Assembly: GCA_040954595.2 (NCBI GenBank)
Contig: CM082577.2
Span: 14,515,903-14,579,902, forward strand
Length of the DNA stretch: 64,000 nt
DNA from: Balanoglossus misakiensis
Lineage: Eukaryota > Animalia > Hemichordata
Direction of reading: 5' to 3'
Position 1 is the first letter of the stretch; the number at the start of each line of letters is the position of its first letter. Below the pieces are notes generated by a model. It was not told the DNA's origin. It was given only the letters and a program-made list of their open reading frames with translations, and made no database searches. The position numbers were made by a program, and so were the translations under genes. Of this stretch, positions 3,737 through 43,434 are shown in pieces.

Positions 3737-3844
3737 CGCGGTGTAAGAAGAAAAGGTTGACTGGTTCTCCACACTGTATATAATACAGTGTGTTCAAGTC
3801 AGACGTTCAGTCGTTTTCTATCGCTGAACCAAGAACTGTGTACG

Positions 3845-5518
3845 ATGGCTAATATACTGAAATACTCGAGTCGACTTGCGTTTGATCCCATAACCCCGGA
3901 ATTGTTAAACATATTCGCGGACAATGATATTAAATGTCCAAACGTCTGTTCCAGAGAGTATAACTCCAGAAGTTTATCGTATCTCCTGTGTAAGACGGGA
4001 TCTCAAGCGTTCCCAAATTACGATATAAGTAAATTCAAACTTATCGATTCCAAAGCTATCCTGAGTGGCGACGTGGACATCTTTTTATCTGAACTGGTTC
4101 ACACGCCATTCTTTGCTAGCATTGCTATGCGTATAATAGCAGAGGTTACCGGAAGAGCCTATAACAAATACGATCCAATGGTGAAAGACGACAGACAGTG
4201 GGTAATGAAAGCTATAGAAGAAACTGATTGCAACCAACCAAATGACATTTTCAACTTGACTGGACTACGTCTCGAAAAGAAGAAACTCAAAAAAGACAAG
4301 GCTGACACTGGTTCGAACAAGTTTTCACATTATGATGTTGTTTTCCAATTTGGTGACAGCGCAAAAGTAGTAACACTACCAGGAGATTGTGATGATAACA
4401 TTGTAGATTGTTTTGATGCGACTGACAAAATTGTGGCGCGTCCTGCCTTACAGACGACAGAATTGAAGACGGGCACACAGCTAGTCGGATATTCCAACGT
4501 TTCGTTTAAGGGTAACTTTTGTATCACAGACGAAGAATTGGATACTGTCAAAGGGCAGATGAAATCACGTGGTGGTTCCTTGATAGGTGCAAACCATCTA
4601 CGACAGATTGATAGTGCCCGCTATATAATAGGGCTGTCATGTCGTTTTGGCGAATATGGAAACATGAAATTTCTGAAACTTCAGTTAGTCTATCTGATCG
4701 TTCAGTGTAGATATTTATATCTCTGCATGATTGAAGACAAAGACAACCCTCTCTATTCAGAAGTCAGACTGAGAGATGATGTTGACTTGAACACTTTCAG
4801 TTCGTTGTTTACGCAAGAACTACGGAAACTTTTTTACGGAGAAAACGACAACATAGGCCGTAAACTCAAATTGGCTGATGATATGCCCACATCAATATAC
4901 AACAAACACCTTGCTTCAGTCACCATGAGATCTTTTTATGAAGTCGGTCTCGAACAAAGAAACGGGAATCTGTTGGCGAAAGAAGCTATAAACACCAGTG
5001 CCGACGTTCAAAGTCAGGTTGCAGCGTTTTCCGATGTATTACGGCGTTCTAAGAGAGAATATAAACCTCTGCATATAGTCTACCACCCAGCTGTTGTACC
5101 AATGAACCGCGATAAAAGTAGCATAAGGGTTCCGCAGAATGTGAGGATTTACATAAGTGACTCGAAACGCGAGTCCAATGACCCGCCAGATGCCATGAAT
5201 GCCGCCCTCAAAATAATCTGTTACGGCAGTAAAGAGATAAAAAAAAACGTGGTGATGTCGTCGTTGTTAGACTCTGTCCAAGTTGTGCCATGGAAAGCTG
5301 TCTTTGAGAAAGATACTTCTTTGCAACAATCTACCGAATTAGACCAATCTAGTCTTGCACTCGCTGTCCAGAATATCGTTTGCCATTTGAATAGCAGTGA
5401 AGAAGAAGCGTGTGAAATGCTAGCCATCCCATGGGCCGATTATCTGGCGTCTAAAAACGAACAGTTGGCTATCTGTGCCGAGCCCGACGCCAAACGCATG
5501 CGAATTACAAGTAATTAG
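3845..5518 (+). CDS. Hypothetical viral protein with C-terminal NLS-like motif (PDAKRMR)
   Basis: Long open ORF, ATG at 3845, AATAAA downstream. Confidence 0.7.
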   Translation: MANILKYSSRLAFDPITPELLNIFADNDIKCPNVCSREYNSRSLSYLLCKTGSQAFPNYDISKFKLIDSKAILSGDVDIFLSELVHTPFFASIAMRIIAEVTGRAYNKYDPMVKDDRQWVMKAIEETDCNQPNDIFNLTGLRLEKKKLKKDKADTGSNKFSHYDVVFQFGDSAKVVTLPGDCDDNIVDCFDATDKIVARPALQTTELKTGTQLVGYSNVSFKGNFCITDEELDTVKGQMKSRGGSLIGANHLRQIDSARYIIGLSCRFGEYGNMKFLKLQLVYLIVQCRYLYLCMIEDKDNPLYSEVRLRDDVDLNTFSSLFTQELRKLFYGENDNIGRKLKLADDMPTSIYNKHLASVTMRSFYEVGLEQRNGNLLAKEAINTSADVQSQVAAFSDVLRRSKREYKPLHIVYHPAVVPMNRDKSSIRVPQNVRIYISDSKRESNDPPDAMNAALKIICYGSKEIKKNVVMSSLLDSVQVVPWKAVFEKDTSLQQSTELDQSSLALAVQNIVCHLNSSEEEACEMLAIPWADYLASKNEQLAICAEPDAKRMRITSN

Positions 5519-5715: not shown

Positions 5716-6384
5716 TTACACTAAATGTTTAGTCGACCCTGGTAGATTATTATATTTCGGGTTGCTAGTCTCATTCAAAGTCCACACTAGCATATCGGTT
5801 ACAGTTGACGCAGAACAGTTCGCCATCAGATTGACATCCACGAATTTATCCACGTTTAGAACCACCCAGCAGGCACGAAGCAAAGGTTCTAGAGATGTAC
5901 AGACAGCAATGTGAATTAGTTCATCCGAATTTTGGCTATGACTAGTTAAGAAATTATCCAATGAGCCATATTTCAGCCACTTGTTCGCGCTCATATTATG
6001 CCAAAGCGCAACTCTGTCCGGCAAGGCCCTCAAACACGACAGTTTATTTGTTTGAACACCGGACCACATACAAACGCCATCGTCGCAATAGTCCAATTTT
6101 TTCCTTTTGGAAGGTACAGGTATATGCGCTGAAGTCTTTGGGACAAACACGTGCGTTTCCATCAATTGAAATAATTCTTGGCTAGACATAGTACCGGCGA
6201 ACCATCTCAGATGTACGTCTTGAGCCTGCATTGCCCAGTAGTCGTCGAATTCATCCTTTGCGGTCATATATCGGATGACGATATCATCGCTAACCTTTCC
6301 CTCATTACAATTAGATTGAAATAGTGTATCGTGCAAATAGGCGTCTCTGAGGACAATGTATTCATCGAACGATGTCGCACTCAT
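5716..6384 (-). CDS. Hypothetical protein (NLS-like PSKRKK)
   Basis: 222 aa ATG ORF filling the gap between genes; TATA-like element upstream. Confidence 0.6.
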   Translation of the reverse strand: MSATSFDEYIVLRDAYLHDTLFQSNCNEGKVSDDIVIRYMTAKDEFDDYWAMQAQDVHLRWFAGTMSSQELFQLMETHVFVPKTSAHIPVPSKRKKLDYCDDGVCMWSGVQTNKLSCLRALPDRVALWHNMSANKWLKYGSLDNFLTSHSQNSDELIHIAVCTSLEPLLRACWVVLNVDKFVDVNLMANCSASTVTDMLVWTLNETSNPKYNNLPGSTKHLV

Positions 6385-6515
6385 GCCTTATACACGCCGA
6401 ACTACATGACATAAATGAGCCCCCACTATTATATACTGCAATTTTGTTTATTTCATAATTCATTTGTAATTATACAGAGATGTTAGACGATGTGAAGAAA
6501 CAAAAACAATTGTGA

Positions 6516-7097
6516 CTAGTAGGCATCAACCAAGCATGGATTGAGTAGCTTCCTCATAAGTTGTCCAGTGAACTCTTCGTGGATGATCAAGCACGGAAGT
6601 CGATAGTCGTGGCAGATTTCTAGGAATGTGGACTGGAACTTCTTGTGCACATCGGCTAATTTGTCAAGCGCTCTTATTTCATAGGGTCGACCACGGCTGA
6701 CAATGTTTTTCTTACAATAATCCCAAGCCATATCTTTGAACACAATTATGAATTTATCTAGGTGTCCAAAGGCAGCCCGTATCATATCTTTCTCTGTCAG
6801 TTGTAAGTTGTATGTTTGCCTGATTCGCGAAAATGTCAAGTGTTGAATTATACTAGAGTCACAGATTCGCCCCTTCGACATTCGCCCTTCCGAGTTCCAC
6901 TGCAAATCGAGGGTGTGTTGGATGAATTGTCGTTGAAAATCACCCGGGTCAATTTCACCAGCATAGAAATCGGAAATTTTGGTCGAAAAAGATTCAGTAA
7001 ATTCGGGTACACACTCATATTCCAGCTCTCTGGCGACATAAAATGCATCGTGAGATTTACCGCAACCGATTGGGCCGTTAAGGAATATGGTGGCCAT
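6516..7097 (-). CDS. Deoxynucleoside kinase (dNK family)
   Basis: P-loop GPIGCGKS, VPE motif, ICDSSI (ERS-like), lid RGRPYE. Confidence 0.85.
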   Translation of the reverse strand: MATIFLNGPIGCGKSHDAFYVARELEYECVPEFTESFSTKISDFYAGEIDPGDFQRQFIQHTLDLQWNSEGRMSKGRICDSSIIQHLTFSRIRQTYNLQLTEKDMIRAAFGHLDKFIIVFKDMAWDYCKKNIVSRGRPYEIRALDKLADVHKKFQSTFLEICHDYRLPCLIIHEEFTGQLMRKLLNPCLVDAY

Positions 7098-7307
7098 CCA
7101 ATGAGTTTACTACAGTTTGTGTCGGGTCTATTTATACCATTCGTTACGACTACGATGATCAGAACCAAACGCTTCCGATAATGATTTGTTGCATGTGGAT
7201 CAACTAGGGGATGTCGCATGTTGTCCGTGTTCCGGAGTGTGAGAGCAACCACTATCCAAATTTAATAAAGATTTGTTTCGCAACAGCCTCTCAGTATTAC
7301 GGAGATC

Positions 7308-8216
7308 ATGACGGCTCATAGTTCTGCCAGACCCCATGATATCCCGTCCACGTGCATGTTTGATACATGTGAAAATACGCCACTCTCATACTGTTCCGTA
7401 CGGTACGGTGCATTGGAAGAAGAAATTCATCTGCACTACACTAGTGGCCTGAATAACGTAGAGAATGAAAGAGCGTACGCTCTTTGGGCCATAAATACAT
7501 CCTTAGAAGAGCCTAAAGCGATCAACTTTAACAATGGATTGCATCTTGCCTGGAAAACCGTCAACTTTGTTTCTTCTCCAAAAGCCGTTGTGTTAAACAC
7601 GAGCATGACAAGTCTCGCCGCTTGTGGTTATGAACCGTACAAATTGATATCATTGGTAGTAAGTCGGCGCCTAAAAACACCCTCTGTTAAGGCTTCTGTC
7701 GTTAGTGCATTCTGGGTAACGTCGGCACTCTCAAACTCTTACATTAAGTGCACCCTATTGAACCAAATGTTTATCGACCATTATCCTAGTATGCATTATA
7801 TATTTTTCACTGTTTTGGACAGTTTAGACAATTCTATCATGCGAAATAATGTATACGAATTCGCAAAAAAACTAGAGTACATATGTCATTCAGACTACAA
7901 AAAACAAGACCAGATTGTCCGCGCCATGCTCGCGCCGATAGCGTTAAAAAGCAGTGTTGAGGACACGACAATTAGACGGATACGTGTAGGTCATGGTATT
8001 TATGACCGTAAGGTCGGTGTGACCAGTGACACTATAAACATAATAGTTCCAGACCGCTGCTGGCCGTACGCATGGCATGACTGTACTCTGATCTATTCAT
8101 CAAAGATTAAAACGTACGAGAGGACTGACGAGAGAATCAGGTGGTTATCGTCCGCCTTTCTGAATGTATCGGATCTTCCAGACACTTTATTGCGTATGTT
8201 CAAACCTCTGGTGTAA
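7308..8216 (+). CDS. Hypothetical viral protein
   Basis: 302 aa ATG ORF, tandem with the next gene. Confidence 0.65.
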   Translation: MTAHSSARPHDIPSTCMFDTCENTPLSYCSVRYGALEEEIHLHYTSGLNNVENERAYALWAINTSLEEPKAINFNNGLHLAWKTVNFVSSPKAVVLNTSMTSLAACGYEPYKLISLVVSRRLKTPSVKASVVSAFWVTSALSNSYIKCTLLNQMFIDHYPSMHYIFFTVLDSLDNSIMRNNVYEFAKKLEYICHSDYKKQDQIVRAMLAPIALKSSVEDTTIRRIRVGHGIYDRKVGVTSDTINIIVPDRCWPYAWHDCTLIYSSKIKTYERTDERIRWLSSAFLNVSDLPDTLLRMFKPLV

Positions 8217-8222
8217 TCCGAA

Positions 8223-8804
8223 ATGACAATGGGAGACACGTTATACAGTAATGTGCATAGTGCCTGGGAGAACGTTTCCACCTTGGATATAACCATGGTG
8301 TTAGAGCAAGCCCATCCACAGACAACATGTTGCATCAATTGCACTGGTCTTGGTGGGAAGGTCATATATTCCCCCGGCGGATGCACCTGTCTGATATCAA
8401 AGATGAAACTCCCTAGTAAAGACCCCTCTTTTCAAGACAAACGGGTTTTTGAACATCCTACCATACATATGATAGTTCATTTGATGTCGTTTTTCTCAGA
8501 GAGTGTGGATTTCCAGGAGGACAAGTTCATTTTTAGGGAGATTGTACATGTTGGGCCCGACATAATTTCATTGATCATAGGTGCCCAGGACCTCAGAGGA
8601 GTATGTAATATTAAAGAGAGAACGTTGACTGTAACCGTTATACAGAGTCCGTCTATACTAATAAAGATTGAACCGTTAAACAAAGACCAGGAGCTGTCTT
8701 CACTGGTAACTAAATTGGCGCACCACACCTTTATTAAGAAAGGGATGAATCGACAAAGGTTGGCAAAGAGAAGACGGGTGAAAAGGCTACGCAAGATAAA
8801 CTAA
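8223..8804 (+). CDS. Hypothetical protein with Cys cluster and basic C-terminal NLS
   Basis: TCCINC..GCTC; RQRLAKRRRVKRLRK. Confidence 0.6.
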   Translation: MTMGDTLYSNVHSAWENVSTLDITMVLEQAHPQTTCCINCTGLGGKVIYSPGGCTCLISKMKLPSKDPSFQDKRVFEHPTIHMIVHLMSFFSESVDFQEDKFIFREIVHVGPDIISLIIGAQDLRGVCNIKERTLTVTVIQSPSILIKIEPLNKDQELSSLVTKLAHHTFIKKGMNRQRLAKRRRVKRLRKIN

Positions 8805-8991
8805 CTCTATATACGTTTATATACTTACGACTAGCGACTATTTGGCTGACATATTCAAGCCGTAAAATTTGTACCAAGAAGTTGACGAATCGTTCCCGAC
8901 GAAAAAAAAAGCACCGACCATACAGCGCACTTGAAAAGGTTACGCACTAATGAATGTGATTGTCCAAATATAAATCAAAGGCTATATAACA

Positions 8992-10890
8992 ATGGGTCGA
9001 TATGGTTTGGCTCATATTGTAACCGATGTCAAAAGACACGCTTCTGAAATTAGGGACCCTGTGTACGGCGTGCTTGCAGCGGACGTCAACAGGTGGCGAT
9101 TAACAAAACTCCCTGTCCGATGGGAGCATGTACACGGGAGAGGAGAAGGTAGTGAGGACATTGGAAAGTCTTCTATACTATCGAGTAAGGGTATTGGTTA
9201 CGTGAAAAACTGGTGGCTCGATTTTTCGTATCCAGGATCATATTTTGCAGTGGCCGTTTTATTGGAATTGGATGCCAAAGACTATATACAGAGTCCATTC
9301 TCTAGCGTGTTTAATAGCGTGTCATTGAGTCAAGATGCGAAGAATCGAGGGAAGTGCTTCGACATATCTCTAGTCAGAACTGGAGCAAGACATGGTACGC
9401 GTGCCTTGTTCTTTGATGACCTCAATCAAGTTCGTTTGGCAAGTCGCAAATATTTTGGTTTAGACTCAACTTTCACGGATGTCGTAAGTAAATACAAAGC
9501 GATCCGCGGGAGATATAACGCATACAGATCGAACGGTGGCTGCAGACTAAAGTATAAACGTGCAACATCCAACCAACATAATGTCAATATGGACGGTAGG
9601 GCGGACGGCAAAGCGTTGAATCATGAGGAACTGGAAATGACTAACCAGTTTACAAGTAAGCAAGATGCAGATCACGATACGCATGACACCCGAAAGGAAG
9701 GCGAAACACGACTGATACACATGTTAGGACAAAATAATGAAAAGGCCACTGTCCATGAGAGGACAGACTCGCCACGCACTCCTGCACCTAACACTGAAAA
9801 TTCGCTGGCTAAGGAGTTGGCGTTAGTCAGCAAATTGGCACAGAATCTTCCCAAAGAGGACGCTGTACAGTTGATGGAACTGTTTGAGAATCGGGACGAG
9901 AAAATAAATTCCATGGACAATATGGCGTTGACCATGTCGTTACAAGTTCAGAAAATCTTGCAACTAGTCAGTAACATAATGGACGAACAAAACACACCGG
10001 AATCCAGGAAACGCAGGGATGATCTTATGGAACTCCGTCAAAAACTCACCAGAGAGCCCATGGATCAAGGTCATATAAACGCCTCATTTTCGAAACTTGG
10101 TGAATCATACCAAGACATATCGAAGGAAGCAAACAAGGTTCCCAGAGCATCTATGGACGAGGCAGTCAGTAATAAACTGATCGACTACTATAAACGTGTT
10201 ACTAACGTGCTCAAGAAGCAATCAAACCCGGATACAATAAGTGAATCCAATATGTCCTCTTTGAGTAAAGATCAACAGGAACGCATGGCTAGAATTAAAC
10301 AACATATGTCAGAAAGCCCAGACATATACCAATACATACAGTCACTAGAGGCGGCAGTGGATAGTAGTCTACTCCAAGGTATACGTGAAAAATCCCCGCG
10401 ACCACACGGTAGTCTGTCGCGTCATGCTGCGCAACAAAATGCTACCTATAGAGACCGCGACGATGGGTATTCGCCACATTATCACACGCAAAAAATCACG
10501 GGACCTAGTCAGGAGCCCTACCAACGGCGTCAACCAACGCATGAGTGTATGTGTGAGGATTGTCAGCCCATACGTCACACCAAATCTCCCCACCTGCAGA
10601 ACCGACGCCAAGGATCTCCGCAATACCCCATAAAGACCCATCAATCTAAGCACAATTCTGAAGCTATGCAACAGCGCAAAGATGCGACCCAGTGTGATCG
10701 ACAGCAAGACTGTACTGCAAAATCGTGTCGCCAACCGGACTCCGAGGATAAAATCGACGCCAGTTTCAGTGGTCATTCGGAGCACCAACAGACATTCTGG
10801 AAATTGAGGAAGCCAATAGTATACGATAATGATTTTCCGGAAGGATTTTGTGACGACGGACCACCAATAGTCAAGAGAATCAAACATTAG
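8992..10890 (+). CDS. Capsid maturation protease (assemblin/HK97 prohead protease fold) fused to scaffold
   Basis: LPVRWEH (catalytic His), IGYV, SVSLS (catalytic Ser), DISLVRTGARHGT (oxyanion Arg); helical/low-complexity C-terminal scaffold; position beside the capsid genes. Confidence 0.8.
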   Translation: MGRYGLAHIVTDVKRHASEIRDPVYGVLAADVNRWRLTKLPVRWEHVHGRGEGSEDIGKSSILSSKGIGYVKNWWLDFSYPGSYFAVAVLLELDAKDYIQSPFSSVFNSVSLSQDAKNRGKCFDISLVRTGARHGTRALFFDDLNQVRLASRKYFGLDSTFTDVVSKYKAIRGRYNAYRSNGGCRLKYKRATSNQHNVNMDGRADGKALNHEELEMTNQFTSKQDADHDTHDTRKEGETRLIHMLGQNNEKATVHERTDSPRTPAPNTENSLAKELALVSKLAQNLPKEDAVQLMELFENRDEKINSMDNMALTMSLQVQKILQLVSNIMDEQNTPESRKRRDDLMELRQKLTREPMDQGHINASFSKLGESYQDISKEANKVPRASMDEAVSNKLIDYYKRVTNVLKKQSNPDTISESNMSSLSKDQQERMARIKQHMSESPDIYQYIQSLEAAVDSSLLQGIREKSPRPHGSLSRHAAQQNATYRDRDDGYSPHYHTQKITGPSQEPYQRRQPTHECMCEDCQPIRHTKSPHLQNRRQGSPQYPIKTHQSKHNSEAMQQRKDATQCDRQQDCTAKSCRQPDSEDKIDASFSGHSEHQQTFWKLRKPIVYDNDFPEGFCDDGPPIVKRIKH

Positions 10891-10924
10891 CGTGAGAGAA
10901 TAATTTACAACACAGGAAGAAAGA

Positions 10925-11845
10925 ATGTCCATCAGAAACGCGCAAGTAAAAGCCCCTCCAGTTGAAGGCCCAGTGATTGCGCTTGAAGTAGACCGCACGT
11001 TCGTTTCACAAAACTTGGACGGTGCGAAGTTATCGGTCACTCAGGATGTGCTCTACCCGAGAGACGACAAGGTCACAATTGTACCGGGACAGGTACTGTT
11101 GGGACACAGGGATTTTGCTTCTAGAAAGTGGGGAGTTGTTCCTTCACCAGCTGGGCTCATGGCAAAGTCATTTGATATACATACTGGAGATATCGAAAAA
11201 AGCAGGCAGATGTGGGAGTTAGACCCACAGGCGTATAAGGTACTGGGTATAGCTTCGACCGAATCCACCGATTGGGAAAAGGGTCAGCTAATGTCGATTG
11301 TGTCAAAGTCACCCAGTACGGGTTTTTTAAACACAGGAGGCAATTGGATAAGAGACGGACAACTTGTCTGTGTGCGTCTCCCAACCCACGAAGAAGCCAA
11401 TCAACACTTGCATCGGTATGGTTCGATCAAATTTGCCACCTATCCCCGCGACGATAACGACGTTCATTCAAATATATACGAGTTTATGGACTATCTAAGA
11501 ATGGAAAAGGATATTGCTGTAGCAACAGGTCACCACAACAAAAGAGAATCGCTGAAAGCGCTCACCGAGATACTATCGCGTTCTGGGGAATTCATTTCGA
11601 GTCATATAGTGCCAGAGCCAAGATCCCGAGCACAATTCGACAACTGGAAGCGTACGGGATATATTTTCAACACTCCATTAACCCTATTCACTGATGAAGC
11701 GCACAGGATATCTTTGCAACATTTTCTCAACAATGTGGTCAAACTTGCCAACACAATTAGATCAAAGAACGACCTGATAATCTTAGGACTCGCCAGGCAA
11801 GATATACACCCTTACGAATACGGGAGCATAGAACTCTACGTTTAA
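10925..11845 (+). CDS. Probable capsid triplex protein (triplex 2-like)
   Basis: VLGIA..FLNTGGNWIRDGQLVCVRLP and C-terminal ILGLARQDIHPYEYGSIEL resemble the triplex pattern as I recall it; ~300 aa; lies between protease and MCP. Confidence 0.6.
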   Translation: MSIRNAQVKAPPVEGPVIALEVDRTFVSQNLDGAKLSVTQDVLYPRDDKVTIVPGQVLLGHRDFASRKWGVVPSPAGLMAKSFDIHTGDIEKSRQMWELDPQAYKVLGIASTESTDWEKGQLMSIVSKSPSTGFLNTGGNWIRDGQLVCVRLPTHEEANQHLHRYGSIKFATYPRDDNDVHSNIYEFMDYLRMEKDIAVATGHHNKRESLKALTEILSRSGEFISSHIVPEPRSRAQFDNWKRTGYIFNTPLTLFTDEAHRISLQHFLNNVVKLANTIRSKNDLIILGLARQDIHPYEYGSIELYV

Positions 11846-12518
11846 TATCTGTACGCGGAACACGTGTAATGGCATAAGACAATTTACCGTGGATTGTAAT
11901 TTTTATCTTTATATATACATATTAAATAAATGTTACAAACAAAGTAATATAAGTAGTGAAACTTGCATGTCTACACACGAATAAATACACATAGACGATC
12001 ATATGGGTTAAAATGAATTTATTTTTAACATGTTGTAAGAGAGTGTGCTGTATGTGATAAACAATCACCTACACAGTTCTCATCTACATAACAATAAAAC
12101 TCCTTCTGTGATTGGTTCACCGCCGACCAGTCTCAAGTCCAGTTGGGGTCGTTAAAATTGCGGCCTTTATGACTTCAATGACTAATGAATGAAGTCAATA
12201 TGACCGCCGTTTCACCCCCCCCCCCCCCTCATATGTTACGGGGGAAATCATTACAACTGTACCATGGAATCCTCCTGTACATTACTTGTACCTTTCACCA
12301 TGGACTATGCGTTGTGCTTCTTCATCATCTTCGTAGATGTACCGAATATAACAGTCCATGGTGTCAGACTTGTAGCCACGAATAATGATTACTATCCTTT
12401 AGATGGGATTCAGCTATGCGTCTTCTCTGTTACAGCATGTTTCGCCAAAAGTGGTTCGTCAGAGATATTATATTAATAATGTGTTAGAATAGCGATACGT
12501 GTATAAAGGTATTTCAAA

Positions 12519-15500
12519 ATGCTGAATCCGTTCAGACGGGGTCAACCCAACATGAGCAGGCCTTTGATGACGTCTGATCTACTAAATTTTGACAATTTTT
12601 TTGCAGACGACGGGTCAAACCCGCCCTCTGGTCAGGGTCGATTCGGGGGAACATTCTCATCCAATCCAAACTATATCGGACATCGAAACCAGGGTCACAC
12701 TGCCACAGACACCGATTGGGTTGCCCCGAAAGATGTCTTATTGAGTCAAAGGATATTATACGACTCGATCTCGCCTGATGAAGGCGTTGTTAAAGTGGGT
12801 GGTGATAGGTTGGCTTGGTTTTGTCCCATCGCTATTTTCAATGGAAGACCCAATTTTGCAATACAGGAAATCATCGCCCCGGCTTCAGTTGTAGATAAAT
12901 GTACATCCGCGTCTACTCTGCCAACACTGGGCGTTGAAAAGCAGTCGAGACAGTATACCATGGATATGATGGGCGTTGCCATCAGTTTAGCTCCAGAGCT
13001 TATTCAAAGAGGGACTGTTAACCAGATAAGGAATGCGTACAAACTCAAGGTCAAACAGGTGGTCGACAGTATCGCAATGACACTACAGGCAGTAGTATAC
13101 AGTAATGTATTCGGTGGTCCCACACTCGAATACATGGAGTTTCGCAGGATGGGCAACGAAAGAGATGTTTCTAGAGCTAACCTATTTTATGGTACATATC
13201 AGAAAAGAATCGACAATTTTCTACTATGGAACCTGGGGCGAACAAACAAGAAAGCTGTGTTAATTGACTTGGATAACTGTTTGAATTACAGTTCGAACAA
13301 CGACGGTGATGCCGACACAATAATATGTCACCCTGTCGTCGCAGGTGTCTTGAGGGAAACTGTCGCGCCTAATCTAGGCACGCAAGAAACTCGAGAAACC
13401 TATTTTGTGAATACGTCTGATAATCACATTGTGTATAATCACCATCTTCAACCAGACCCAAACCTCTCCCACCAAGTTCATGCTCCAAATTTAAGAACAA
13501 TAGTTAATGCAAAAGTTAAGTACATTATTCCCTGTCCGGATGTACGAATAAACAATGTCAAGTCGAATCTCAGTGAACTCGAGGCCAACTTCAAATCGTT
13601 TAACGTTATAGGATATTGTCCATTACTGCAACAAATGGGTAGTCTACTGGACTTCAAACAAACCACATCTGTGGATTGGAATTCCATATACGTTACCGAC
13701 TTTGAGAAACGATACGATTCGAGGGTTACCTTGGACGAGGTGATGGAACAGGGTGGTTATTTTGTACCAGAAACATACAACGCGAGTTCTTATAACAATC
13801 TATTGAGAAGTGCAGACTTTATTGAATTGACGACCATAACACCAGCCGAGTATTATCGATCATGCACAATGCCTTTCACTGGAAAGGAGAAATCCTGCTT
13901 GTTAGATCCTAGTCGAAAAGTGTATTATGACCCGGACAGACAAACATTTCTACCCGCGTTCACTTATGGACACAGCAACGTGAGCACCTGTCCCGTCGAC
14001 AGGGGTGACATTGTCGCCGGTATGACGTTCATGTCCAGGACAATGGTTGGCCTCGGAGAGCATTGCGACGAGGAATTGTTATGCAACTATGTAAGAGACT
14101 GTCTGTCGCTGGAATGGTCTCAGGAGGATTTCGACACCCTTATGCTGTTTGATCGCACACCGTTTCACGAGGCAATGGGCGATGTGGCAGAAGTTGGCAA
14201 TACCAGTGATGGGAATGGAAGTGGAGAAGGTTCAGGTAGCCAGGGGACATTGGCCCAAAGGGTTATCAGGGACGTCACTTCTCATAGTGGCGCCACACAT
14301 TTTACCAATTACGATCAATTGCTAATCGTCCGTCATATTTGTCAGCAACGCAGATGCATCGATCGAGAAAGAGAGGAAGGTGGTCGTGCAGGTGCTACCG
14401 CTATGAACGCATTAGACTGCGCAATTGTCAACATTACTATGATTATAGAATGGGTAGACTTACTCTATGACAAATATAAAACAGTAACCAAATCCAGGCC
14501 AGATACTACACACAGTTGGTTGTTCACGCCATTGGGTCATGAGACTCTACAAAAAGTATTTCACGATGACCGCCTAGATGAAGCGGATGAGAGAGATTAC
14601 ACGCATATGTTACGCAACAAGGCTGCTCTGTACCACAATGTATTTCTGAGAGCATTTTCGCCGGTTGTATATGTTGCGGGAAATTCTTCTTTAGACGAAG
14701 CTATAGAGGCCGGCATCGTGAACGTTGTGGGGCTGGGTGACATTACACTGAACGAGGAGGTTTATCATTACAATTGTAACTTTAGTACATATTCAGCCAG
14801 GCGGACATTCAATACTATAGCTGATTCGTCATTCATACGCCCCAAGCAAAGATTTGTTATCTCCGATTTGAGTCCATTGCACTCATACAACAATGACTCT
14901 CCTGTCGATGCGGAACACTTTCTGAACCATAACTATTCCTACAGGTTGTCATGGATCTGCAGTTCGTCATACAGTCTCATGATCAAGTGTTTTACCATGA
15001 TTTTCATTAGCATGTTACAAAACCCAACCACTACTAGAGCGTTAGCAAAAGAAGGGATATATTTAAACACGGCGTTTCTTTTGTTCAGAAATGTGGTACA
15101 GCGGACATGTAGCATCGCCATGGCGCGATCTGGTAGAGAGAACAGGTTCTTGTTTTGTGGCAATAGCACTACAAATAGTTACCATAGTAATGCCACCAGT
15201 TATGTGACGAATTGTCGTTTCGAGACAAATATGGTGGACTTCGACCCGATCAATAACACCAGGGTACAGTTGCACGTGGGAGGTCTGGGTTATAACAGGG
15301 GGATGGGTTCAAAAATTAGGGACCCGTTCACGGAGGGGACGTCCGATGGTAGGGGCGACTTTGTTGTTGTACCTATGTGTCCGATCGTAGATGTTGGGCT
15401 CTGGAATCACATTCAACCTATGAACGGGCGAGTTACGTTCGAAGATGGTAATTCAAACAAAAAGGCCACGAGAATAGACACTGTCCAAGGTATTTACACC

Positions 15501-15986
15501 AATAATCCGTGGTCAACGGCTGGACTGTCAGAGGCTCAGATTATACATGGTAACATGCGACATCCCTTATGGGTTCACAATAGTAACAAGCACGGGACGT
15601 TCAAGTGTTTCTTACAGGCCAAGACACCGTCACCACAATACCAAGTTGGTATTGATGAATTTTATAGGCCCATAGATTCCAATGGTCTACAGAGAGAATC
15701 AAACATAGCTGTACAGGGTAGGCAGTACCACAACAACATTGACTGTCCATACGCTTTCAAGACTCTTAACAGAGGGTTTTATGGAATGGACGAAAATAGT
15801 AGCAATCGCTTCCAAGACGCCCTCAACGTCTCCACCGTTCGTGATGACGAAGGTTTACATCTGATGGATCCAATCACGATTCAACCGTCTGTCAAGAGAA
15901 CGGACAAGTACTACGCAGAGACTGGAATCCGTAAGAAATTCAAGCCAGACGACGCGTCGCGTCAACACAGACTAATACCTATTTAG
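12519..15986 (+). CDS. Major capsid protein (HK97-fold, herpes/mirusvirus type)
   Basis: 1155 aa; N-terminal floor-like segment (FCPI..SRQYTMDMMGVAISL..YKLKVKQVVDSIAMTLQAVVY; ADTIICHP); follows the protease-triplex genes. Confidence 0.7.
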   Translation: MLNPFRRGQPNMSRPLMTSDLLNFDNFFADDGSNPPSGQGRFGGTFSSNPNYIGHRNQGHTATDTDWVAPKDVLLSQRILYDSISPDEGVVKVGGDRLAWFCPIAIFNGRPNFAIQEIIAPASVVDKCTSASTLPTLGVEKQSRQYTMDMMGVAISLAPELIQRGTVNQIRNAYKLKVKQVVDSIAMTLQAVVYSNVFGGPTLEYMEFRRMGNERDVSRANLFYGTYQKRIDNFLLWNLGRTNKKAVLIDLDNCLNYSSNNDGDADTIICHPVVAGVLRETVAPNLGTQETRETYFVNTSDNHIVYNHHLQPDPNLSHQVHAPNLRTIVNAKVKYIIPCPDVRINNVKSNLSELEANFKSFNVIGYCPLLQQMGSLLDFKQTTSVDWNSIYVTDFEKRYDSRVTLDEVMEQGGYFVPETYNASSYNNLLRSADFIELTTITPAEYYRSCTMPFTGKEKSCLLDPSRKVYYDPDRQTFLPAFTYGHSNVSTCPVDRGDIVAGMTFMSRTMVGLGEHCDEELLCNYVRDCLSLEWSQEDFDTLMLFDRTPFHEAMGDVAEVGNTSDGNGSGEGSGSQGTLAQRVIRDVTSHSGATHFTNYDQLLIVRHICQQRRCIDREREEGGRAGATAMNALDCAIVNITMIIEWVDLLYDKYKTVTKSRPDTTHSWLFTPLGHETLQKVFHDDRLDEADERDYTHMLRNKAALYHNVFLRAFSPVVYVAGNSSLDEAIEAGIVNVVGLGDITLNEEVYHYNCNFSTYSARRTFNTIADSSFIRPKQRFVISDLSPLHSYNNDSPVDAEHFLNHNYSYRLSWICSSSYSLMIKCFTMIFISMLQNPTTTRALAKEGIYLNTAFLLFRNVVQRTCSIAMARSGRENRFLFCGNSTTNSYHSNATSYVTNCRFETNMVDFDPINNTRVQLHVGGLGYNRGMGSKIRDPFTEGTSDGRGDFVVVPMCPIVDVGLWNHIQPMNGRVTFEDGNSNKKATRIDTVQGIYTNNPWSTAGLSEAQIIHGNMRHPLWVHNSNKHGTFKCFLQAKTPSPQYQVGIDEFYRPIDSNGLQRESNIAVQGRQYHNNIDCPYAFKTLNRGFYGMDENSSNRFQDALNVSTVRDDEGLHLMDPITIQPSVKRTDKYYAETGIRKKFKPDDASRQHRLIPI

Positions 15987-16276
15987 ATCGAAGGGATAAC
16001 TGTCAAATCAGTTTCGTTTAATCCCACCCGCATAGATAGATAAAAGTTTTGTTAAGGCCAGAGAGAAAAAAAAATCTTGTTCATCGGATTTTTTGGACGA
16101 TGGTCCAGGAGCGGCGAGCGAATATTTTTTTTTTTTTTTTTTTTTAGGCTCGTGCTCTTTCATTTTGTTACCTGTATGTGTAGGTCTACCTGTGCTGTAC
16201 TATATGTAATGTATGACTTATACGGCCGAAATAAAAAGTTGAACCACCAGAAGTGACAACCACAATTTTTTCCGAG

Positions 16277-17658
16277 CATGGTGTATTATTTGCTGACCTT
16301 ATATTGGCAAGCTTCACAAATGGTGACCCCGACGTGATGAATTCTCAAGGCATGAGTGTATTGTATTTACAATCGTGACGTTACTGGTTACCGACTCACC
16401 CTCTCCAGACAAGTGACGCACACGATCACGGCCAGTATGTATGGCAGGAAATCACACGCATTAATTCCCGAATAAAATTTGGGATAACGATTATTTAAAA
16501 CGGAATGCTTGTTTTGAGAAAGCTGCCCGTCTCGCGCATAAAAGTTCAACATATTTGAAATATCTTAAATAAAAGTGAATAAGCTTTCAATATATATATA
16601 ATGACAACAAAATGGTTTAACACGTAACAAAAATATAAATTCTGTACAAAAATTCATGAATTCTTGTCAATGAATCTCAGATATAATAAATAATGTCTAT
16701 ACAGCGTGATTTTGATTGTCTTTTCCATGTAACGTAAATACCACAACGTAGTTCTTCTCCAGGCGATGGGAAAATATAGTCTCTTGCCATGGACGAGCGA
16801 AATTTAATCTATCAGGGAAATATATCTGCTCACAAATGCGCGCCATATTGGGTGGCAAAGCGCGTCGTCGTCATCAAAAGTGGAAATCAACACTAGAACG
16901 TGAACATCGCTTTTGATGTCCGTTTCTCGAGTCACAGTTTCAAGTCTGAATACTCCAACACGACATATTAAAGCTCTGTCTCTTCCACCTCCAGTTTTGA
17001 TTGTATAAACATCGTCGCGTCCGATGGCGCGATCATTTGGTGCAGCGTTCGGTCGGGTGCGAAATTTTCCCTTCAAGACGGTGTGATTTTTTTCCTCATA
17101 CTAATTCTGTGTAACTACGAGTCTTGGCTGTCATTATGAATACGATTTCAGTTCGGCAAAAACTTCTGAAAAATACGTACTCTCCTTGTTTATCCGTAAC
17201 ATGTTGGCACTACAGTCATTTATAATTTTCAGGCTTCTGTCCCCGAATCTGTCTCTGTCGTCTTCAACTAGGAACGGTTTTAGCGGATAACTGATCTCGT
17301 TGCCCACGTAACTATAGGATAAGTACAGACATGTGAGCACGACGGCTTGTAGCTCAGACTCGGAGGTGATTTTGTCGTCGACAAAGTCCCGACATAACAT
17401 GTACACGAAGACAAGGTTTGCCGGGGTGATGAAGGCAATGTCCTGCCACCCTTGCAAGAGCAGGGACCTGTCCACTGATCGCAGCCACATTATGGCATCG
17501 TTGCCTTCGAAGTCCCGCAAGCAGGAGCATCGCCGACTGAGGAAATTTCCCAGACACTTCAGCAGTTCTCCGGTGGACGCTTGGATGGTTTTCTTGGTGT
17601 TCGGCGTTTTCACCGCCATGGTGTATTATTTGCTGACCCTATATTGGCAAGCTTCACA
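16277..17658 (+). repeat. 42-bp direct repeat (16277-16318 and 17617-17658) bracketing the captured segment
   Basis: CATGGTGTATTATTTGCTGACC(T/C)TATATTGGCAAGCTTCACA, 1 mismatch. Confidence 0.9.
17134..17619 (-). CDS. CDK5R1: CDK5 activator (p35/p39 family), N-truncated p25-like core only
   Basis: [68 protein letters not shown] matches the p35 activation domain. Confidence 0.93.
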
Positions 17659-18038
17659 CGATGAACAATTTATTTTTCTTCCTGGCCTAATTGTCTCTGT
17701 ACTGTCCGTGTTGCCAGCCAATCCACTCATTTATTCCGCTGCTTTGATATAATTACATGCCTATGCAAATAGGGAAAGATATACAAATCTACATGCCTTT
17801 TTTTTATACACCACATAATACGTAAGTGCATGTATTCCAACTGTAATACATTGGATAGACCGTGTGCGTGCGTGTCACTATCCTGCGTGTAAAATTGGCG
17901 AGTATAATTTTTAGAGACAACTCGGCTTTTGTGGCTCATAATTCTAATTATATCAAAGTACAACGCCAACAGTCCTATACATCTGGCGTTGACATAACCT
18001 ATTAGCGTGTGCAGAGAACAGTATTGTTTAGTTGAACC

Positions 18039-18404
18039 ATGAGAATTTTACTCGCTACTTTTATGGGGGTTCTCTTTATATCATTTATTATCGGTCTTAC
18101 AAACTTCGTCAAATCTTTACCGTCACATCATAATCCAAAGTCCCCGATAGCGCCACCCTTTTATTTACGGTGGTGTAAAGATTCCCTCTATACTACGCTG
18201 TCAGAGACGACCGAATGGGTACCCGATCAATTAACGAATCTGATGTACAACTCCACCTACACCCCAATGCCATTGAGGAAAGTGAGCAAAGAAACAGTAG
18301 GTTGGATGGCACAGAGGCTTTTAAACATCAAGTCTGCTATTACGCCCAACGCTCCAAAAGCCTTAGTAGGATACACGATAGATATTTCTATACAGGGTCC
18401 TTAG
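18039..18404 (+). CDS. Small membrane/secreted protein
   Basis: N-terminal hydrophobic segment; overlaps the next ORF. Confidence 0.5.
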   Translation: MRILLATFMGVLFISFIIGLTNFVKSLPSHHNPKSPIAPPFYLRWCKDSLYTTLSETTEWVPDQLTNLMYNSTYTPMPLRKVSKETVGWMAQRLLNIKSAITPNAPKALVGYTIDISIQGP

Positions 18405-19009: not shown

Positions 19010-19588
19010 ATGACAGAACAAACGTCAATGTCGTCTCAATTAGACCCCGAAATGTGTATTTGTCGCATATGCCAAGAAGGTGAATCGTGTGCTGAAGGCG
19101 GCATGCTTTTGATTGCACCTTGTTTATGCAAAGGTAGTCTGAAGTTTGTCCACCGTAGGTGCATCCAAACCTGGATAAGAAGCGCTCGTATCAACCGATG
19201 TGAAATTTGTAATGCACGCTTCAAAATCATGGTTGAGACTAGACCAATATCAGAATGGACATTGCCGAAGATGACCAGAACGATATGGATAAATATTGCA
19301 CTTGTGTTGTCGTGTACTGTGTGTATATTAGGCATATCATTACACATGCACCTTTTGGTGGAATCCCTATTTCTAAAGATGGATGCACTGAATACATTTT
19401 TCGTGGTGGCTTGCGTGTTGCTGGCACTTATGGCGCTGACTGCATTTGTCCTCCTAGAGACTTTTAGGTGCGTGGACGTGTATGTGTGGTTAAGAGAGAA
19501 CAACAGAGAGATAGGTGTTAAGGACTATTGCCCATCTTCTCAACAAATACATGGTGGTGATGAAGACATACGCACGAATACGGTGTAG
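19010..19588 (+). CDS. MARCH-family (RING-CH) membrane E3 ubiquitin ligase
   Basis: CRICQ..LIAPCLCKGSLKFVHRRCIQTW..CEIC followed by two TM helices. Confidence 0.92.
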   Translation: MTEQTSMSSQLDPEMCICRICQEGESCAEGGMLLIAPCLCKGSLKFVHRRCIQTWIRSARINRCEICNARFKIMVETRPISEWTLPKMTRTIWINIALVLSCTVCILGISLHMHLLVESLFLKMDALNTFFVVACVLLALMALTAFVLLETFRCVDVYVWLRENNREIGVKDYCPSSQQIHGGDEDIRTNTV

Positions 19589-21087: not shown

Positions 21088-21536
21088 CAAGACTGTCAGG
21101 AATTGTACATGGCACGCAGTAAATGAAATATTCGCGATAGAAAGAACAATAGCAATAAGAAGAAGAATTACAACAAAGTGTCGTGTCCCTAAAATAACGG
21201 AACTGTTCAACATTGATGAAGATATGAGGTCGTTACCGCAACTTAAAGATGGCAGAACTATAACAATTGCCATAATAGTTCTTTTTTTTTATTTCTTGGG
21301 TGTGTCATAACATAGGTTCTACAAAATATACGGACTCTCCTTTCAATACATGCATCGTCCAATCAGGTAAATAAACAAACAACCCATAAATGTATGGATG
21401 TCTGCGATACTGTGTACATAATTTAACATAAATAAATAAATACATATCCGTATAAATGCCCACTTGTCTGTGTCCATCTTCGTATTTATATTGCAATTTT
21501 ATCACGGGTCAGAGCCTTATAACGTTAAACCTGGTC

Positions 21537-24500
21537 ATGAATGTAGGAAGGCGGCGTGTTTACCTGTTAAAACTAGAAGTCAAAGGGAGAGGAGTCAACG
21601 CATCCGACCTCTGTACCATCTTCGGCAAACTTCCCAATGGGCGTAGTATCGCGTTGGACATACTCGACCCAGTATATAGGATTTATTTGAATCCCATCAA
21701 CGAGGTTAGGGACGAGGAAGAAGTGTGCGCCCTCATTCATCAGTATACCAGCACGTTTTCCAATAACTTCAGCGTTGGTAAAACGTCAAAGGTAATCGGC
21801 AATGGTTACGCGGGGGATTCTCGACTGCCATTTTGGTACGTCGAGTCGTCGGAAAATGCGGTTGTTAAACAGGTGCAAAAAAATCTACCACGCTCCATTT
21901 TCAATTTTTTTATGGACGGCTGTGGAAAGGCCTATTTGGACGTAGCGGCCAATATGAACATCGGGGGTGTTGGTTGGCACTGGATTAAGTCGTCAAGATA
22001 CGTAACGGGATGCAAATGCCATTCGTGGTATGGCAAAGAACATGATCATGCCACTGTGAGTGATACCCACTCCATTGAGCCCCAACGAGAAGGCGAAAGT
22101 AGTCCACCACCACCCATTAACATTCTTCAACTGAAAGTTCATTGCTATCCAGACGGTGTAATCGCATTTATTACCTGTTCGTTGTTACGATGGGCAAAAG
22201 ATTTGACTTGTCTGTTTAATAATACATTCCGTAATTGTACCGTTGTGAAGTTTAGAACCACGATGTATGGTGGTGATATCTCAAATGTAGTAAATTGCAG
22301 GGATGAAGGTAATGTGTTACGCGCATTCACCAAAATCATCACTACCTGTGACTATGACTTTTTATGTGGATATTTTTTGGAAAAGGAACAGTTAAGAGTG
22401 TTAAAGGAGAGAAGTTGTCTTCACGGGCTCAACTTGATAAACCCTTTATTAATCAGGGATATTCGCCACACGCCTTTCATCAACAGGTGGGATAATGACC
22501 CACGCGGTATTGGCTTGATCGACATATGTACTGACAAACACGCGGATGGTCCGGACGCCTACAAATACATCAAAGACACTGTATTTAACAAAGGCTTCCT
22601 GAACACATACTTATCAACTTGCGAAGCGGCTACTATATTCTGTAGCCGACTAACTCACAAGAAGTCAAATGTAGATATTATACAGGTACCATACATGGAT
22701 TTTTTTGAGTCAGCTATGACTCGTAAGGCTAAACAACTTGGGTACGTCTTTGCATGCAGGGAAATCGGAGGAAGCAATGCGACGACGAGTCATTCTGAAT
22801 ATGAGATTGAAGCAGATCGAGGTCAAGGTTGTCAAGGCGGTTTGTTTCTCACGCCGGTTCAAGGGTTACACGTGGGCAATGCAGAATTGAGAGATTTTAA
22901 AAGCATGTACGGTTCCATAATAGTTGCATTTAACATCGACATCACCACTAGTTTGCAAGAATCACGCGCGGGTTTATTAAATGATGTAATTGAGATACCA
23001 GGTGGCTACAACTTTGTTAGCCCAAATGTTCGGCAGGGGTTACTACCGTCTATAGTTTCAAATCTTGTCGCGCAACGGGAACACTTCCAGAAAATTGCCC
23101 AGAGCAACAACGAAAACGGGAGTTGGTACGAAATGCAACAAATGGCACGGAAACAATTGATTGTGGGAGCTTACGGAGTCAATTTACGTCAGAGTATATT
23201 CACAAGCCCGTGTGTGGCTAAGGCCATTACATCCACTGGTAGATTCCTCTTTGAACGGATGAGAGTAACAGCCGCGTCATTCACCCACCCACATTTATTG
23301 ACGACACCCAGTGTCCTATTTGGAAATGCAGATTCTCTGATGACCAGTTTCCTGCCAGCACGTGAATTGTCTAACGTCGAATGGACCGAAGTTTTCATGG
23401 ATATTGGACAGTGTTTCCACGACGACATTCGTAAAGTAGTTCAAACCATGGGCGCGAATATAGATGCGCGTTTATTGCGGTTTGAGTCGAAAGGGCATGC
23501 AAAAATAGTAATGTGTACGAGTCGCAAACAACAGTATGTGATGTGCATTAGGTCAACTTCCAAAAAAGGATGTTGTTTAGTTGTCAAAGGGTTTGTATCG
23601 AACTCTACAAACTGCCATCCCTTGGTGAGAAACGTGGAAAGATGTATGCTGTCACTCCTGTTTGAAGGTCATGTATTGCTTAGGTCTGTAGAATCTGGGC
23701 AACTGTCAACACTTCACCCAAGTGAATTGTCCACACGCTCGCAACTGATATATGAAGCGTACGTAGCATCATCTGGGGTGTGGGTGAAGGTTGGAGATGC
23801 TATAAACCAAGATACTGGTGTTAAGAACTCCTTTCGTTTGCGAGATAATTTAGGCAGAGAATTGTGCGAACGCCTTTTTGACGAGGACGGCATTCCGATA
23901 CTCACCACTGACAGACTCAGAGAAATAAGGTCTGAAGTGGAGACGGTTGTGTTGTACACGTTAAACAGAGTCATAATGTTGCAAGAAGACACGCACCTGT
24001 TGATAAAACATTTGCCACCGAATGCTAACCCTGGTGCAAGGTCGACGTTGGAAAAACAATACATGCAATTTCACGGGAGATTGCCTTGTGATATATTATA
24101 TGTGAATACCAAAGAAGATGGACCAATGCACCCTCTTTTGGCTGTCTTCCAACAGAAAACACTAGAGACAGATGACACAATTGCATCGATAAAAAAGACC
24201 TTTATTGAGGGGGGTGACGAAGGTGGTCCGTATTCCATTATGAATGTTATGAGGCCCAACGTCAAGACATTACACGGAGTATTGTGCATGGAAACAGAAT
24301 CAACTGTGCAAAATCAGTTAAGAGTACAAAGACAGTTTCGGAAACGATTCGATTCTGTCCTCGCTATGTCCTCTAAGAAAGTCGAACACCCCGTGTGCAA
24401 TAATGAAGAGGAATATGTGATGACAAAATTGTTGAATTTTACCAACTGTCCGGATTGTAAAGTTATCACTGTAGATCGAGCTAATCGCGACTACAACTAC

Positions 24501-24740
24501 ACCGACATGTTCGGAACTGATGCGATAATCCGGAAGCATAATTTGGTTTTATTCAATGTATGCAAACAAAGTTCGCGTGTGTATTTCATATCCAATTGTA
24601 AGGATGTCCAGTGTGTAGGCGTATACAAATTTGCCACCTTGGTGAATCAATTGAAAATACTAACTGCACTTAAAAACAAGGAAGCAATGGTAAACAAAGT
24701 GTCAACTGTTTTGACTGAACGTCTCACGAAATCACAATGA
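21537..24740 (+). CDS. Family B DNA polymerase, Pol-delta-like, with degenerate exonuclease and polymerase motifs
   Basis: QGGLFLTP, DFKSMYGSIIVAFNI (motif A), GLLPSIV, KQLIVGAYG (B), ITSTGR, FGNADS (C), LRFE, VVKG; C-terminal CPDC..CKDVQC. Confidence 0.85.
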   Translation: MNVGRRRVYLLKLEVKGRGVNASDLCTIFGKLPNGRSIALDILDPVYRIYLNPINEVRDEEEVCALIHQYTSTFSNNFSVGKTSKVIGNGYAGDSRLPFWYVESSENAVVKQVQKNLPRSIFNFFMDGCGKAYLDVAANMNIGGVGWHWIKSSRYVTGCKCHSWYGKEHDHATVSDTHSIEPQREGESSPPPPINILQLKVHCYPDGVIAFITCSLLRWAKDLTCLFNNTFRNCTVVKFRTTMYGGDISNVVNCRDEGNVLRAFTKIITTCDYDFLCGYFLEKEQLRVLKERSCLHGLNLINPLLIRDIRHTPFINRWDNDPRGIGLIDICTDKHADGPDAYKYIKDTVFNKGFLNTYLSTCEAATIFCSRLTHKKSNVDIIQVPYMDFFESAMTRKAKQLGYVFACREIGGSNATTSHSEYEIEADRGQGCQGGLFLTPVQGLHVGNAELRDFKSMYGSIIVAFNIDITTSLQESRAGLLNDVIEIPGGYNFVSPNVRQGLLPSIVSNLVAQREHFQKIAQSNNENGSWYEMQQMARKQLIVGAYGVNLRQSIFTSPCVAKAITSTGRFLFERMRVTAASFTHPHLLTTPSVLFGNADSLMTSFLPARELSNVEWTEVFMDIGQCFHDDIRKVVQTMGANIDARLLRFESKGHAKIVMCTSRKQQYVMCIRSTSKKGCCLVVKGFVSNSTNCHPLVRNVERCMLSLLFEGHVLLRSVESGQLSTLHPSELSTRSQLIYEAYVASSGVWVKVGDAINQDTGVKNSFRLRDNLGRELCERLFDEDGIPILTTDRLREIRSEVETVVLYTLNRVIMLQEDTHLLIKHLPPNANPGARSTLEKQYMQFHGRLPCDILYVNTKEDGPMHPLLAVFQQKTLETDDTIASIKKTFIEGGDEGGPYSIMNVMRPNVKTLHGVLCMETESTVQNQLRVQRQFRKRFDSVLAMSSKKVEHPVCNNEEEYVMTKLLNFTNCPDCKVITVDRANRDYNYTDMFGTDAIIRKHNLVLFNVCKQSSRVYFISNCKDVQCVGVYKFATLVNQLKILTALKNKEAMVNKVSTVLTERLTKSQ

Positions 24741-36247: not shown

Positions 36248-36700
36248 TTTGTTACATTAAAAAATAACATAATTGTATCGGCAGTATTAACGTCGTCTTG
36301 TTTTTTATTGTATGCGGGGGGGGTGGTACAACCAAACCACACAGTTTAAAATCCATATCAATTGTAAGACAACCAGTGTAAATTTTGTACGCTACATTCA
36401 TTGATCAATATTTGTTGAACAACAAAAAATAACATAATTGTATTGTCTGTCTTATAGTCGCTTTGTTTTCTATTGTATGTGAAGGGGGGGGGGGTACAAC
36501 CAGACCACACAGTTTAAAATCCATATCAAGTGTAAGACAACCAGTGTAAATTTTGTACGCTACATTCATTGATCAATATTTGTTGCATTAAAAAAAGATA
36601 ACATAATTGTATTGGCTGTCTTAACGTCGTTTTTTTCTGTATTTTACGCGAAGGGGGGGGGGGAGGCACAGCCAAACTCTATAGTTAAAACTCAATATCA
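36248..36700. repeat. ~167-bp non-coding tandem repeat, about 2.7 copies, each with a poly-G tract
   Basis: TAACATAATTGTAT at 36265, 36430 and 36599; long identical blocks (TGTAAGACAACCAGTGTAAATTTTGTACGCTACATTCATTGATCAATATTTGTTG). Confidence 0.85.
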
Positions 36701-42298: not shown

Positions 42299-42606
42299 TT
42301 CTTACATACTGCATTCTAACGCGCACACTGCGTGTGTTTATGGTCACGTCGCATTTAATTCATCATTATATTAATTGTAGTTGACAAAAGGACTTGAATA
42401 AAAAAACAAATACGCTCATGACGTATCCTTACATACCAGACTCTAATGCATATGCTATGTTTGAGCGCGTACATGACGCATTTAATTCATCATTATATTA
42501 ATTGTAGTTGTCAAAAGGAATTTAATAAAAAAAACAAATACGCTCATGACATTTCCTTACATACCAGACTCTAACGCATATGCTATGTTTGAGCGCGTAC
42601 ATGACA
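42299..42606. repeat. ~127-bp AT-rich non-coding tandem repeat, about 2.4 copies
   Basis: GCATTTAATTCATCATTATATTAATTGTAGTTG at 42351 and 42478; CCTTACATACCAGACTCTAA..GAGCGCGTACATGAC repeated. Confidence 0.85.
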
Positions 42607-42691
42607 TATTGAAATCCGTCTAATTCAACGCACATCGTAACGATATCAGTTCGTATCAAGACGAATAATTGTTCTTTAGTTCCTGTCTCTT

Positions 42692-43236: not shown

Positions 43237-43434
43237 GACATCATGACTACTTACTCCGACCTGTGATGCCAAACTGTAGTTCCCATGTTTTATCACCGCA
43301 TACTGCACGTCCTGGCGTCCTCACATCAGCATATGTGCGACTTTACACTTTGAAATCATGACATCGTGATTACTTACTCCAACATGTGATGCCATACTAT
43401 ATTTCCCATGTTTTATCACCGCATACTGCACGTC
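43237..43434. repeat. Imperfect ~75-bp duplication (period 123 bp) in the divergent H3-like/DUF4419 promoter region
   Basis: GACATC..TACTTACTCC..TGTGATGCCA..TTCCCATGTTTTATCACCGCATACTGCACGTC at 43237 and 43360. Confidence 0.8.

Follow-up and report, generated by a model that had tools for sequence, protein, structure and literature searches.

Animal Pack-TIRs are terminal inverted repeat (TIR) elements flanked by a target-site duplication (TSD) that enclose a captured piece of a host gene. In the published text available, most single-copy examples are attributed to gap filling by template switching and 87% belong to hAT or TcMariner, the main text never using the word "harbinger" (Tan et al., 2021; PMC8277862). 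One of them, Ssk-FB4, has template-switch junctions and de novo filler at one end (PMC8277862). Plant Pack-TYPE elements, PIF/Harbinger elements among them, have non-autonomous ends and TTA/TAA target sites and were screened for captured coding DNA (PMC8903248). Host transposons also enter large DNA viruses: among moth elements inserted in AcMNPV, those of the Harbinger type, at TAA/TTA sites, led in number in two of three sample sets (PMC4735498, PMC8383894, PMC6004678), and baculovirus insertions remain infrequent and reportedly are purged in the course of ten cycles (PMC8383894). In the available text of these three reports, no captured host gene was found in a viral insertion. Neither host transposons in viral genomes nor elements of the Pack type are new. 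The 64,000-nucleotide stretch of Balanoglossus misakiensis contig CM082577.2 analyzed here (the window) holds a Pack-TIR with a recent host gene capture, seen almost in the act, in a virus. It shares with animal Pack-TIRs the TIRs and TSD around a single-copy piece of a host gene, and with Ssk-FB4 the template-switch type of junction and the filler at one end. It differs from animal Pack-TIRs in being Harbinger-type, in residing in a virus and in supplying the start codon of a whole folded domain, and from plant Pack-TYPE elements in residing in the virus of an animal host, with no amplification of the packed form seen. Unlike the baculovirus insertions, it appears fixed in the sample and lies about 2% from its donor.

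Herpesviral v-cyclins, which are old, conserved, expressed and tested, offer a second parallel, as host-derived cyclin-fold CDK activators in herpes-like viruses; such an activator is predicted here, in a copy about 2% from its donor and seen in one isolate only. The captured sequence is a clear member of the p35/p39 CDK5 activators (PF03261) and, like p25 (PDB 1ung, 1h4l), lacks p10. It differs from p25 in having lost an invariant Trp, in being about 34 residues shorter at the N end by what we take to be the matching numbering, and in its origin by gene truncation, p25 arising by calpain cleavage.

The element occupies positions 16056-17687 (1,632 bp) with TAA on both sides (Table 1). Its inverted termini begin GGCCAG and are identical in 27 of 31 outer aligned columns. 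With a score of 23, this pair ranks at the top of the 242 TAA/TTA-flanked candidate pairs in the window that share five identical end letters, and the best scores in 20 shuffles ranged from 18.5 to 21. The two copies of the 42-nt direct repeat agree at 41 of 42 positions and bracket an insert of 1,298 nt, leaving 292 nt as the arithmetic length of an "empty" element. PF03261 is the sole Pfam match inside the element, and the same scan found no transposase domain; Rfam returned no match at E ≤ 0.1 over 15900-18100. The original prediction, a p35-family ORF within a TIR pair with a TAA duplication and a 42-bp repeat bracketing a capture of about 1.3 kb, is borne out. A TTAA-type element was ruled out, as the right flank reads TAAT and the TAA of host copies is preceded by differing letters. 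A second Harbinger-type non-autonomous element, outside the end-letter criterion of the scan, is found at 37938-38743 (806 bp, flanked by TTA at either end, its open frames not exceeding 69 codons), with terminal arms 94% complementary over 36 nt, target site included.

Table 1. Features of the gene-carrying element and the capsid gene beside it.
Feature	Position	Strand	Basis
Herpes-like (HK97-fold) major capsid protein gene, probable	12519..15986	+	70 bp before element
Left target-site copy, TAA	16053..16055	.	
Left terminal inverted repeat (GGCCAG...), high-copy host repeat	16056..16086	+	alignment, contig depth
Left interior of host element, common to several divergent host copies	16087..16276	+	depth 628-1,378, several variant contigs in X1
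42-nt repeat, copy 1, native place in host element	16277..16318	+	16319-16320 still match host element; host contigs depart at 16320
10-nt filler, likely templated from two 42-mer pieces	16321..16330	+	
Captured host p35 3' region, shortened	16331..17133	-	host contig continues 715 nt; X3 alignment
Open 161-aa p35-family ORF, activation domain only	17134..17619	-	PF03261
42-nt repeat, copy 2; first 3 nt are the ORF's ATG on the minus strand	17617..17658	+	junction contig 17587-17646, depth 138.8, 0 differences
Right terminal inverted repeat	17659..17687	-	direct join to repeat copy 2 only at viral depth
Right target-site copy, TAA	17688..17690	.	

Host copies of the element were read through assembled contigs of three runs (X1, X2 and X3), all of one sample; the window itself may derive from these runs, contig depth gives only a rough measure, and rare variants can be lost from contigs. 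The third run, X3, is small and of unrecorded kind, and it covers only host-type p35 and the element ends. Summed contig depth reached 3,747-5,114 in X1 and 6,290-11,127 in X2 for the left TIR, and 4,930 and 40,381 for the right TIR, against about 135-152 (X1) and 300-480 (X2) for the viral flanks. At 25-130 times the depth of the flanks, the ends are therefore a high-copy host repeat. TAA stands directly before the left TIR in three of the host loose ends listed (two X3 contigs and one X1 group), and one right-end loose end among those listed has neither TAA nor TTA. Such target sites characterize PIF/Harbinger elements in the available text of two reports (PMC8903248, PMC4735498). The element is likely a non-autonomous, Harbinger-type DNA transposon of the acorn-worm host, as had been predicted. 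An autonomous partner would have matching ends and encode a Harbinger DDE transposase together with a Myb/SANT protein.

The accompanying claim that its parent was a simple MITE of about 290 bp holds for the arithmetic length but fails for a host family. The 42-mer meets the right TIR in a single unbranched X1 contig (17629-17688) of depth 143.8, matching viral depth (flanks 134.8-152.1), and in host copies the 42-mer is followed by another interior, at least 639 nt long (depth 237.7 in X1). Sample contigs contained none of the many near-identical short empty copies that a 292-bp MITE would leave, and the first 22 nt of the 42-mer had no match in metagenome contigs. Because host copies carry another interior after the 42-mer, the cargo replaced the interior of the parent and is not a simple insertion; a 42-mer that was the target-site duplication of such an insertion was ruled out, since host copies never continue into the right TIR. 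The viral depth of the packed-form junction argues against a multi-copy host family of the packed form, and would fit a single hemizygous host copy as well as capture inside the virus.

The cargo is 1,286 bp of the gene for the CDK5 activator p35 (16331-17616), and its ORF matches PF03261 with E 8.4e-87 and 292 bits against a cut-off of 25, over profile positions 181-333 of 336. The closest named proteins among the matches listed are p35 of Ptychodera flava (96%), Glandiceps talaboti (92%) and Saccoglossus kowalevskii (86%), the next being at 74%. In a domain tree of 18 rows, with 17 of the 240 homologues picked to span phyla, the captured copy groups with hemichordate p35s (support 96/94), which supplies the phylogeny proposed as a check on host origin. 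A complete host p35 gene, about 2% from the captured copy, is present in the same sample. A 2,725-nt X3 contig matches 16331-17616 in an alignment that starts at contig letter 716 and contains 25 differing letters and 44 gap letters; beyond both alignment ends the contig is unlike the window. Host p35 contigs depart from the window at 17616 in all three runs. These host contigs and the 96% P. flava orthologue support the predicted capture of host p35. The predicted loss of p10 is likewise confirmed: relative to the 301-residue P. flava p35 (P0121), the first 141 residues are gone, including the myristoylation-type MGTVLS start, and the native stop is kept. One ATTAAA/AATAAA-type signal is found near 16808, in the captured 3' region. 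Retroposition was ruled out, as there is no poly(A), both ends are cut and the host sequence continues for 715 nt.

The window is gene-dense, and a Pfam scan of 40 ORFs identified a family-B polymerase, a ribonucleotide reductase small chain, a deoxynucleoside kinase and RING proteins. The putative capsid ORF (1,155 aa) has 14 relatives among 1.84 billion representatives, and the ten looked up all lack a name. With a low-confidence model built from a 12-row alignment (pLDDT 41.7), the HSV-1 major capsid protein and Ranid herpesvirus ORF80 were the only matches at E ≤ 0.001, and the list of PDB structures was headed by herpes capsids (E 3e-3); the single-sequence model reached a pLDDT of only 28.9. 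Atlas features of the ORF indicate HK97 capsids, although recognition is weak. Profile comparison of this ORF with PDB sequences was uninformative, and the viral contig collection yielded no relatives of the gene. No Pfam name for a terminase or portal appeared among the 40 window ORFs, and Atlas had no usable match at 58991-60469. We read the window as an unclassified herpes-like DNA virus of a barely sampled lineage, every supporting line being weak.

A block of six genes (5716-15986) ending in the capsid gene is syntenic in metagenomic locus L001, with 34-54% identity, and four of the six are found in L002; the genes after the capsid differ among the window and the two loci. Neither the element nor p35 occurs in the 15.6 and 19.2 kb fetched for these loci. 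The usual motif of family-B polymerases is YGDTDS; the polymerase at 21456-24740 has FGNADS, along with KQLIVGAYG, and only three homologues at E ≤ 0.001, all without names (best 49%). DUF4419 is split over two consecutive ORFs at 43687-45183 (profile 1-195 and 249-303), which may reflect a split gene, an intron or a frameshift. Intergenic tandem repeats with periods of 68-169 nt are located at 36256-36663, 42301-42616, 43237-43434 and 56075-56334. Three RING-type genes (133-1050, 19010-19588 and 50068-54015) are likely host-derived ubiquitin ligases, one of them a clear RINGv/MARCH-like membrane protein (E 4.6e-13).

That the captured p35 belongs to this viral sequence, as predicted, is supported by junction-specific contigs at viral depth in two runs and by unbranched flank contigs. 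In X1 the p35 bubble separates a window type of depth 142.3 from a host type of depth 59.6 by six differences in 124 nt, and the contig joining p35 to the 42-mer carries the window sequence at viral depth (Table 1). The viral flank contigs (12.2 and 10.8 kb) have 0-2 differences from the window and reach 29 nt into each TIR. Neither an empty-site contig nor a joint that skips the element or the insert is listed among the sample contigs, in which rare variants may drop out, and the element is apparently fixed in the viral population of this sample. X1 contigs, and X2 contigs where they cover, differ from the window at positions 16185, 17383, 19108 and 19999; either another viral haplotype or mistakes in the window sequence may account for this.

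An assembly chimera, with a host repeat and host p35 wrongly built into a viral contig, would fit the high-copy repeats at both ends; the junction records have 29-30 letters on their shorter side, against a bar of 31 letters on both sides, and the runs may be the source of the window. We nevertheless regard this explanation as hardly credible: a distinct p35 haplotype at viral depth, junction contigs in two runs, flanks that pass unbranched into both TIRs and an exact TAA duplication all argue against it. The viral sequence might instead be an endogenous, multi-copy provirus in which an ordinary host Pack-TIR landed within the host genome. Two host-type elements in 64 kb and the apparent fixation would agree with residence in the host germ line, as would a viral depth only about 2.3 times that of host p35 in X1. 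The long, dense ORFs with little decay do not agree with it, nor do viral flanks assembled as single unbranched contigs with 0-2 differences, nor a virus-to-host depth ratio that varies by run, from about 2.3 in X1 to about 4 or more in X2 (a rough measure, X2 being uneven). A provirus seems unlikely.

From left to right, the element consists of a TIR, 190 nt of interior, the 42-mer with two native letters, a 10-nt filler, 1,286 nt of reversed p35, the 42-mer again and the right TIR. In the filler region (16320-16330), two segments identical to parts of the 42-mer cover 10 of 11 letters, a coverage that 1.1% of random 11-mers from the window equal. We infer that a break inside the element was repaired through serial template switching, the route published for most single-copy animal Pack-TIRs (PMC8277862). 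Repair would have followed the 42-mer, then a short templated filler, then the host p35 locus in reverse, and would have returned to the start of the 42-mer and the right TIR. Such repair would have swapped out the interior and set an in-frame ATG on the activation domain by accident. The capture may have preceded the jump, in the host genome, or followed it, in the viral genome, and both orders fit. Since then the captured copy would have drifted, and Gly in place of an invariant Trp probably disables either the fold or the contact with CDK5.

The ATG of the ORF occupies the opening 3 nt of the right repeat copy and has an ACCATGG context, in agreement with the prediction that the start codon comes from the repeat beside the right TIR. 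The cut falls about eight codons ahead of the Pfam domain, with the ATG exactly at the cut. Random cuts in non-coding DNA of the window yielded an upstream in-frame ATG in 28% of cases, one with a -3 purine in 15% and one exactly at the cut in 2.3%, odds to be read in light of the ORF having come to notice because it is open. TATA boxes usually lie about 30 nt from the start site of transcription. The TATA-like AATATAGG is present as predicted, and its TATA starts 24 nt before the ATG, so that the transcript would begin at or past the ATG; as a promoter, the motif is too close. The nearest TATAWAW is at 17808, with three ATGs between it and the start of the ORF.

Comparison with the host contig lists 23 differences (25 were counted), nine of them in the ORF: four silent, which may be host polymorphism, and five replacements. 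Two replacements were rejected as firm virus-side changes: Lys131, also Lys in P. flava, and Phe79, for which an X1 contig has the host letter at 17383. With Lys131 ancestral and Phe79 not found in X1, three to four virus-side replacements remain. Two of these affect sites with at least 90% conservation, a class that makes up 66 of 150 columns: Gly126, where all 240 homologues listed have Trp, and Val105, where 228 of the 240 (95%) have Met. The conserved core of the activation domain is therefore not intact. P. flava and Glandiceps differ at five positions, none within the 66 conserved columns. Searches of the literature for a structural role of Trp258/Met237 found nothing relevant, so the effect of losing the Trp is gauged from conservation only. 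Replacement divergence (1.1-1.3%) is indistinguishable from non-coding divergence (1.7%; Fisher p 0.46). Relative to the host allele, raw dN/dS comes to 0.22-0.36 with all four silent differences counted as virus-side (Fisher p 0.05-0.12) and to 0.44-0.58 with half of them so counted. Stops, frameshifts and indels are absent from the ORF, and 44 unpolarized gap letters separate the non-coding cargo from the host sequence.

We consider the captured p35 to be probably an unconstrained, decaying passenger under relaxed constraint rather than a working CDK5 activator. Conserved columns have been hit in a manner unlike the divergence between P. flava and Glandiceps, and replacements have accumulated on par with non-coding change. 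An upstream in-frame ATG is common enough among random cuts, and the element at 37938-38743 carries no cargo, from which it follows that the virus takes up such elements empty. Against decay, the frame has stayed intact beside a gapped non-coding cargo, the lower dN/dS range holds if every silent difference is counted, and an ATG exactly at a cut so near the domain is rare by chance. The lack of an empty-site contig also speaks against a passenger, given that baculovirus transposon insertions are reportedly purged.

The original prediction had instead described a deregulated CDK5 hyperactivator, of which the loss of p10 stands; the claim of hyperactivity is weakened by Gly for the invariant Trp and Val for the nearly invariant Met. 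By length the ORF presumably corresponds to about residues 133-293 of human p35, an offset that assumes a p35 of 307 residues. This span lies inside fragment 122-291, the activating control, and reaches beyond the dominant-negative fragment 150-279, in the available text of one report (PMC4034031). A young, expressed viral gene resembling p25, activating host CDK5 free of p10 control, would thus be compatible with the extent of the ORF, the lost MGTVLS start, the open frame in good Kozak context and the apparent fixation. We think such a gene improbable in light of the two altered residues, the position of the TATA-like motif and the three ATGs downstream of the nearest TATAWAW, and p35 occurs in neither related viral locus over the 15.6 and 19.2 kb compared. 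Alternatively, the protein might be expressed and bind CDK5 without activating it, as a dominant-negative decoy in which the changes at conserved sites were selected. Truncated p35 fragments can act in this way (PMC4034031, in the text available), and the frame is still open despite both changes; however, loss of the Trp more plausibly destabilizes than retunes the protein, the share of changes in conserved columns (two of three to four, against 44% of columns) matches drift, and the TATA-like motif is as ill placed for a decoy as for an activator. A selected decoy is accordingly rated very improbable. Taken as one proposal, an expressed, working CDK5 modulator, whether p25 mimic or decoy, built in one step by a transposon that removed p10 from host p35, gave it a start codon and brought it into a herpes-like virus of acorn worms, is doubtful, and we retain the decaying passenger as the preferred reading.

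No gene-carrying TIR element in a virus was found in the available text of the literature, of which supplementary tables could list some. A limited literature search also found no viral CDK5 activator. In the viral contig collection, three pattern matches to p35 yielded no confirmed case, and no viral name occurs among the p35 matches listed (240, of 454 and 1,205).

Viral acquisition of host genes has mostly been inferred from old, diverged cases, and here the donor, the transposon family and the viral copy are found in one sample. Readable junctions and a distance of about 2% mark a very young capture, with donor and vector in hand. The element demonstrates that a host DNA transposon can carry and truncate a host gene, and give it a start codon, within a virus, and its later fate, decay or domestication, is open to direct test. 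If the captured ORF proves to work, it would give this family its first viral CDK5 modulator and rank among the youngest captured viral genes. Should its protein act on CDK5, it would represent a new viral route into host kinase control.
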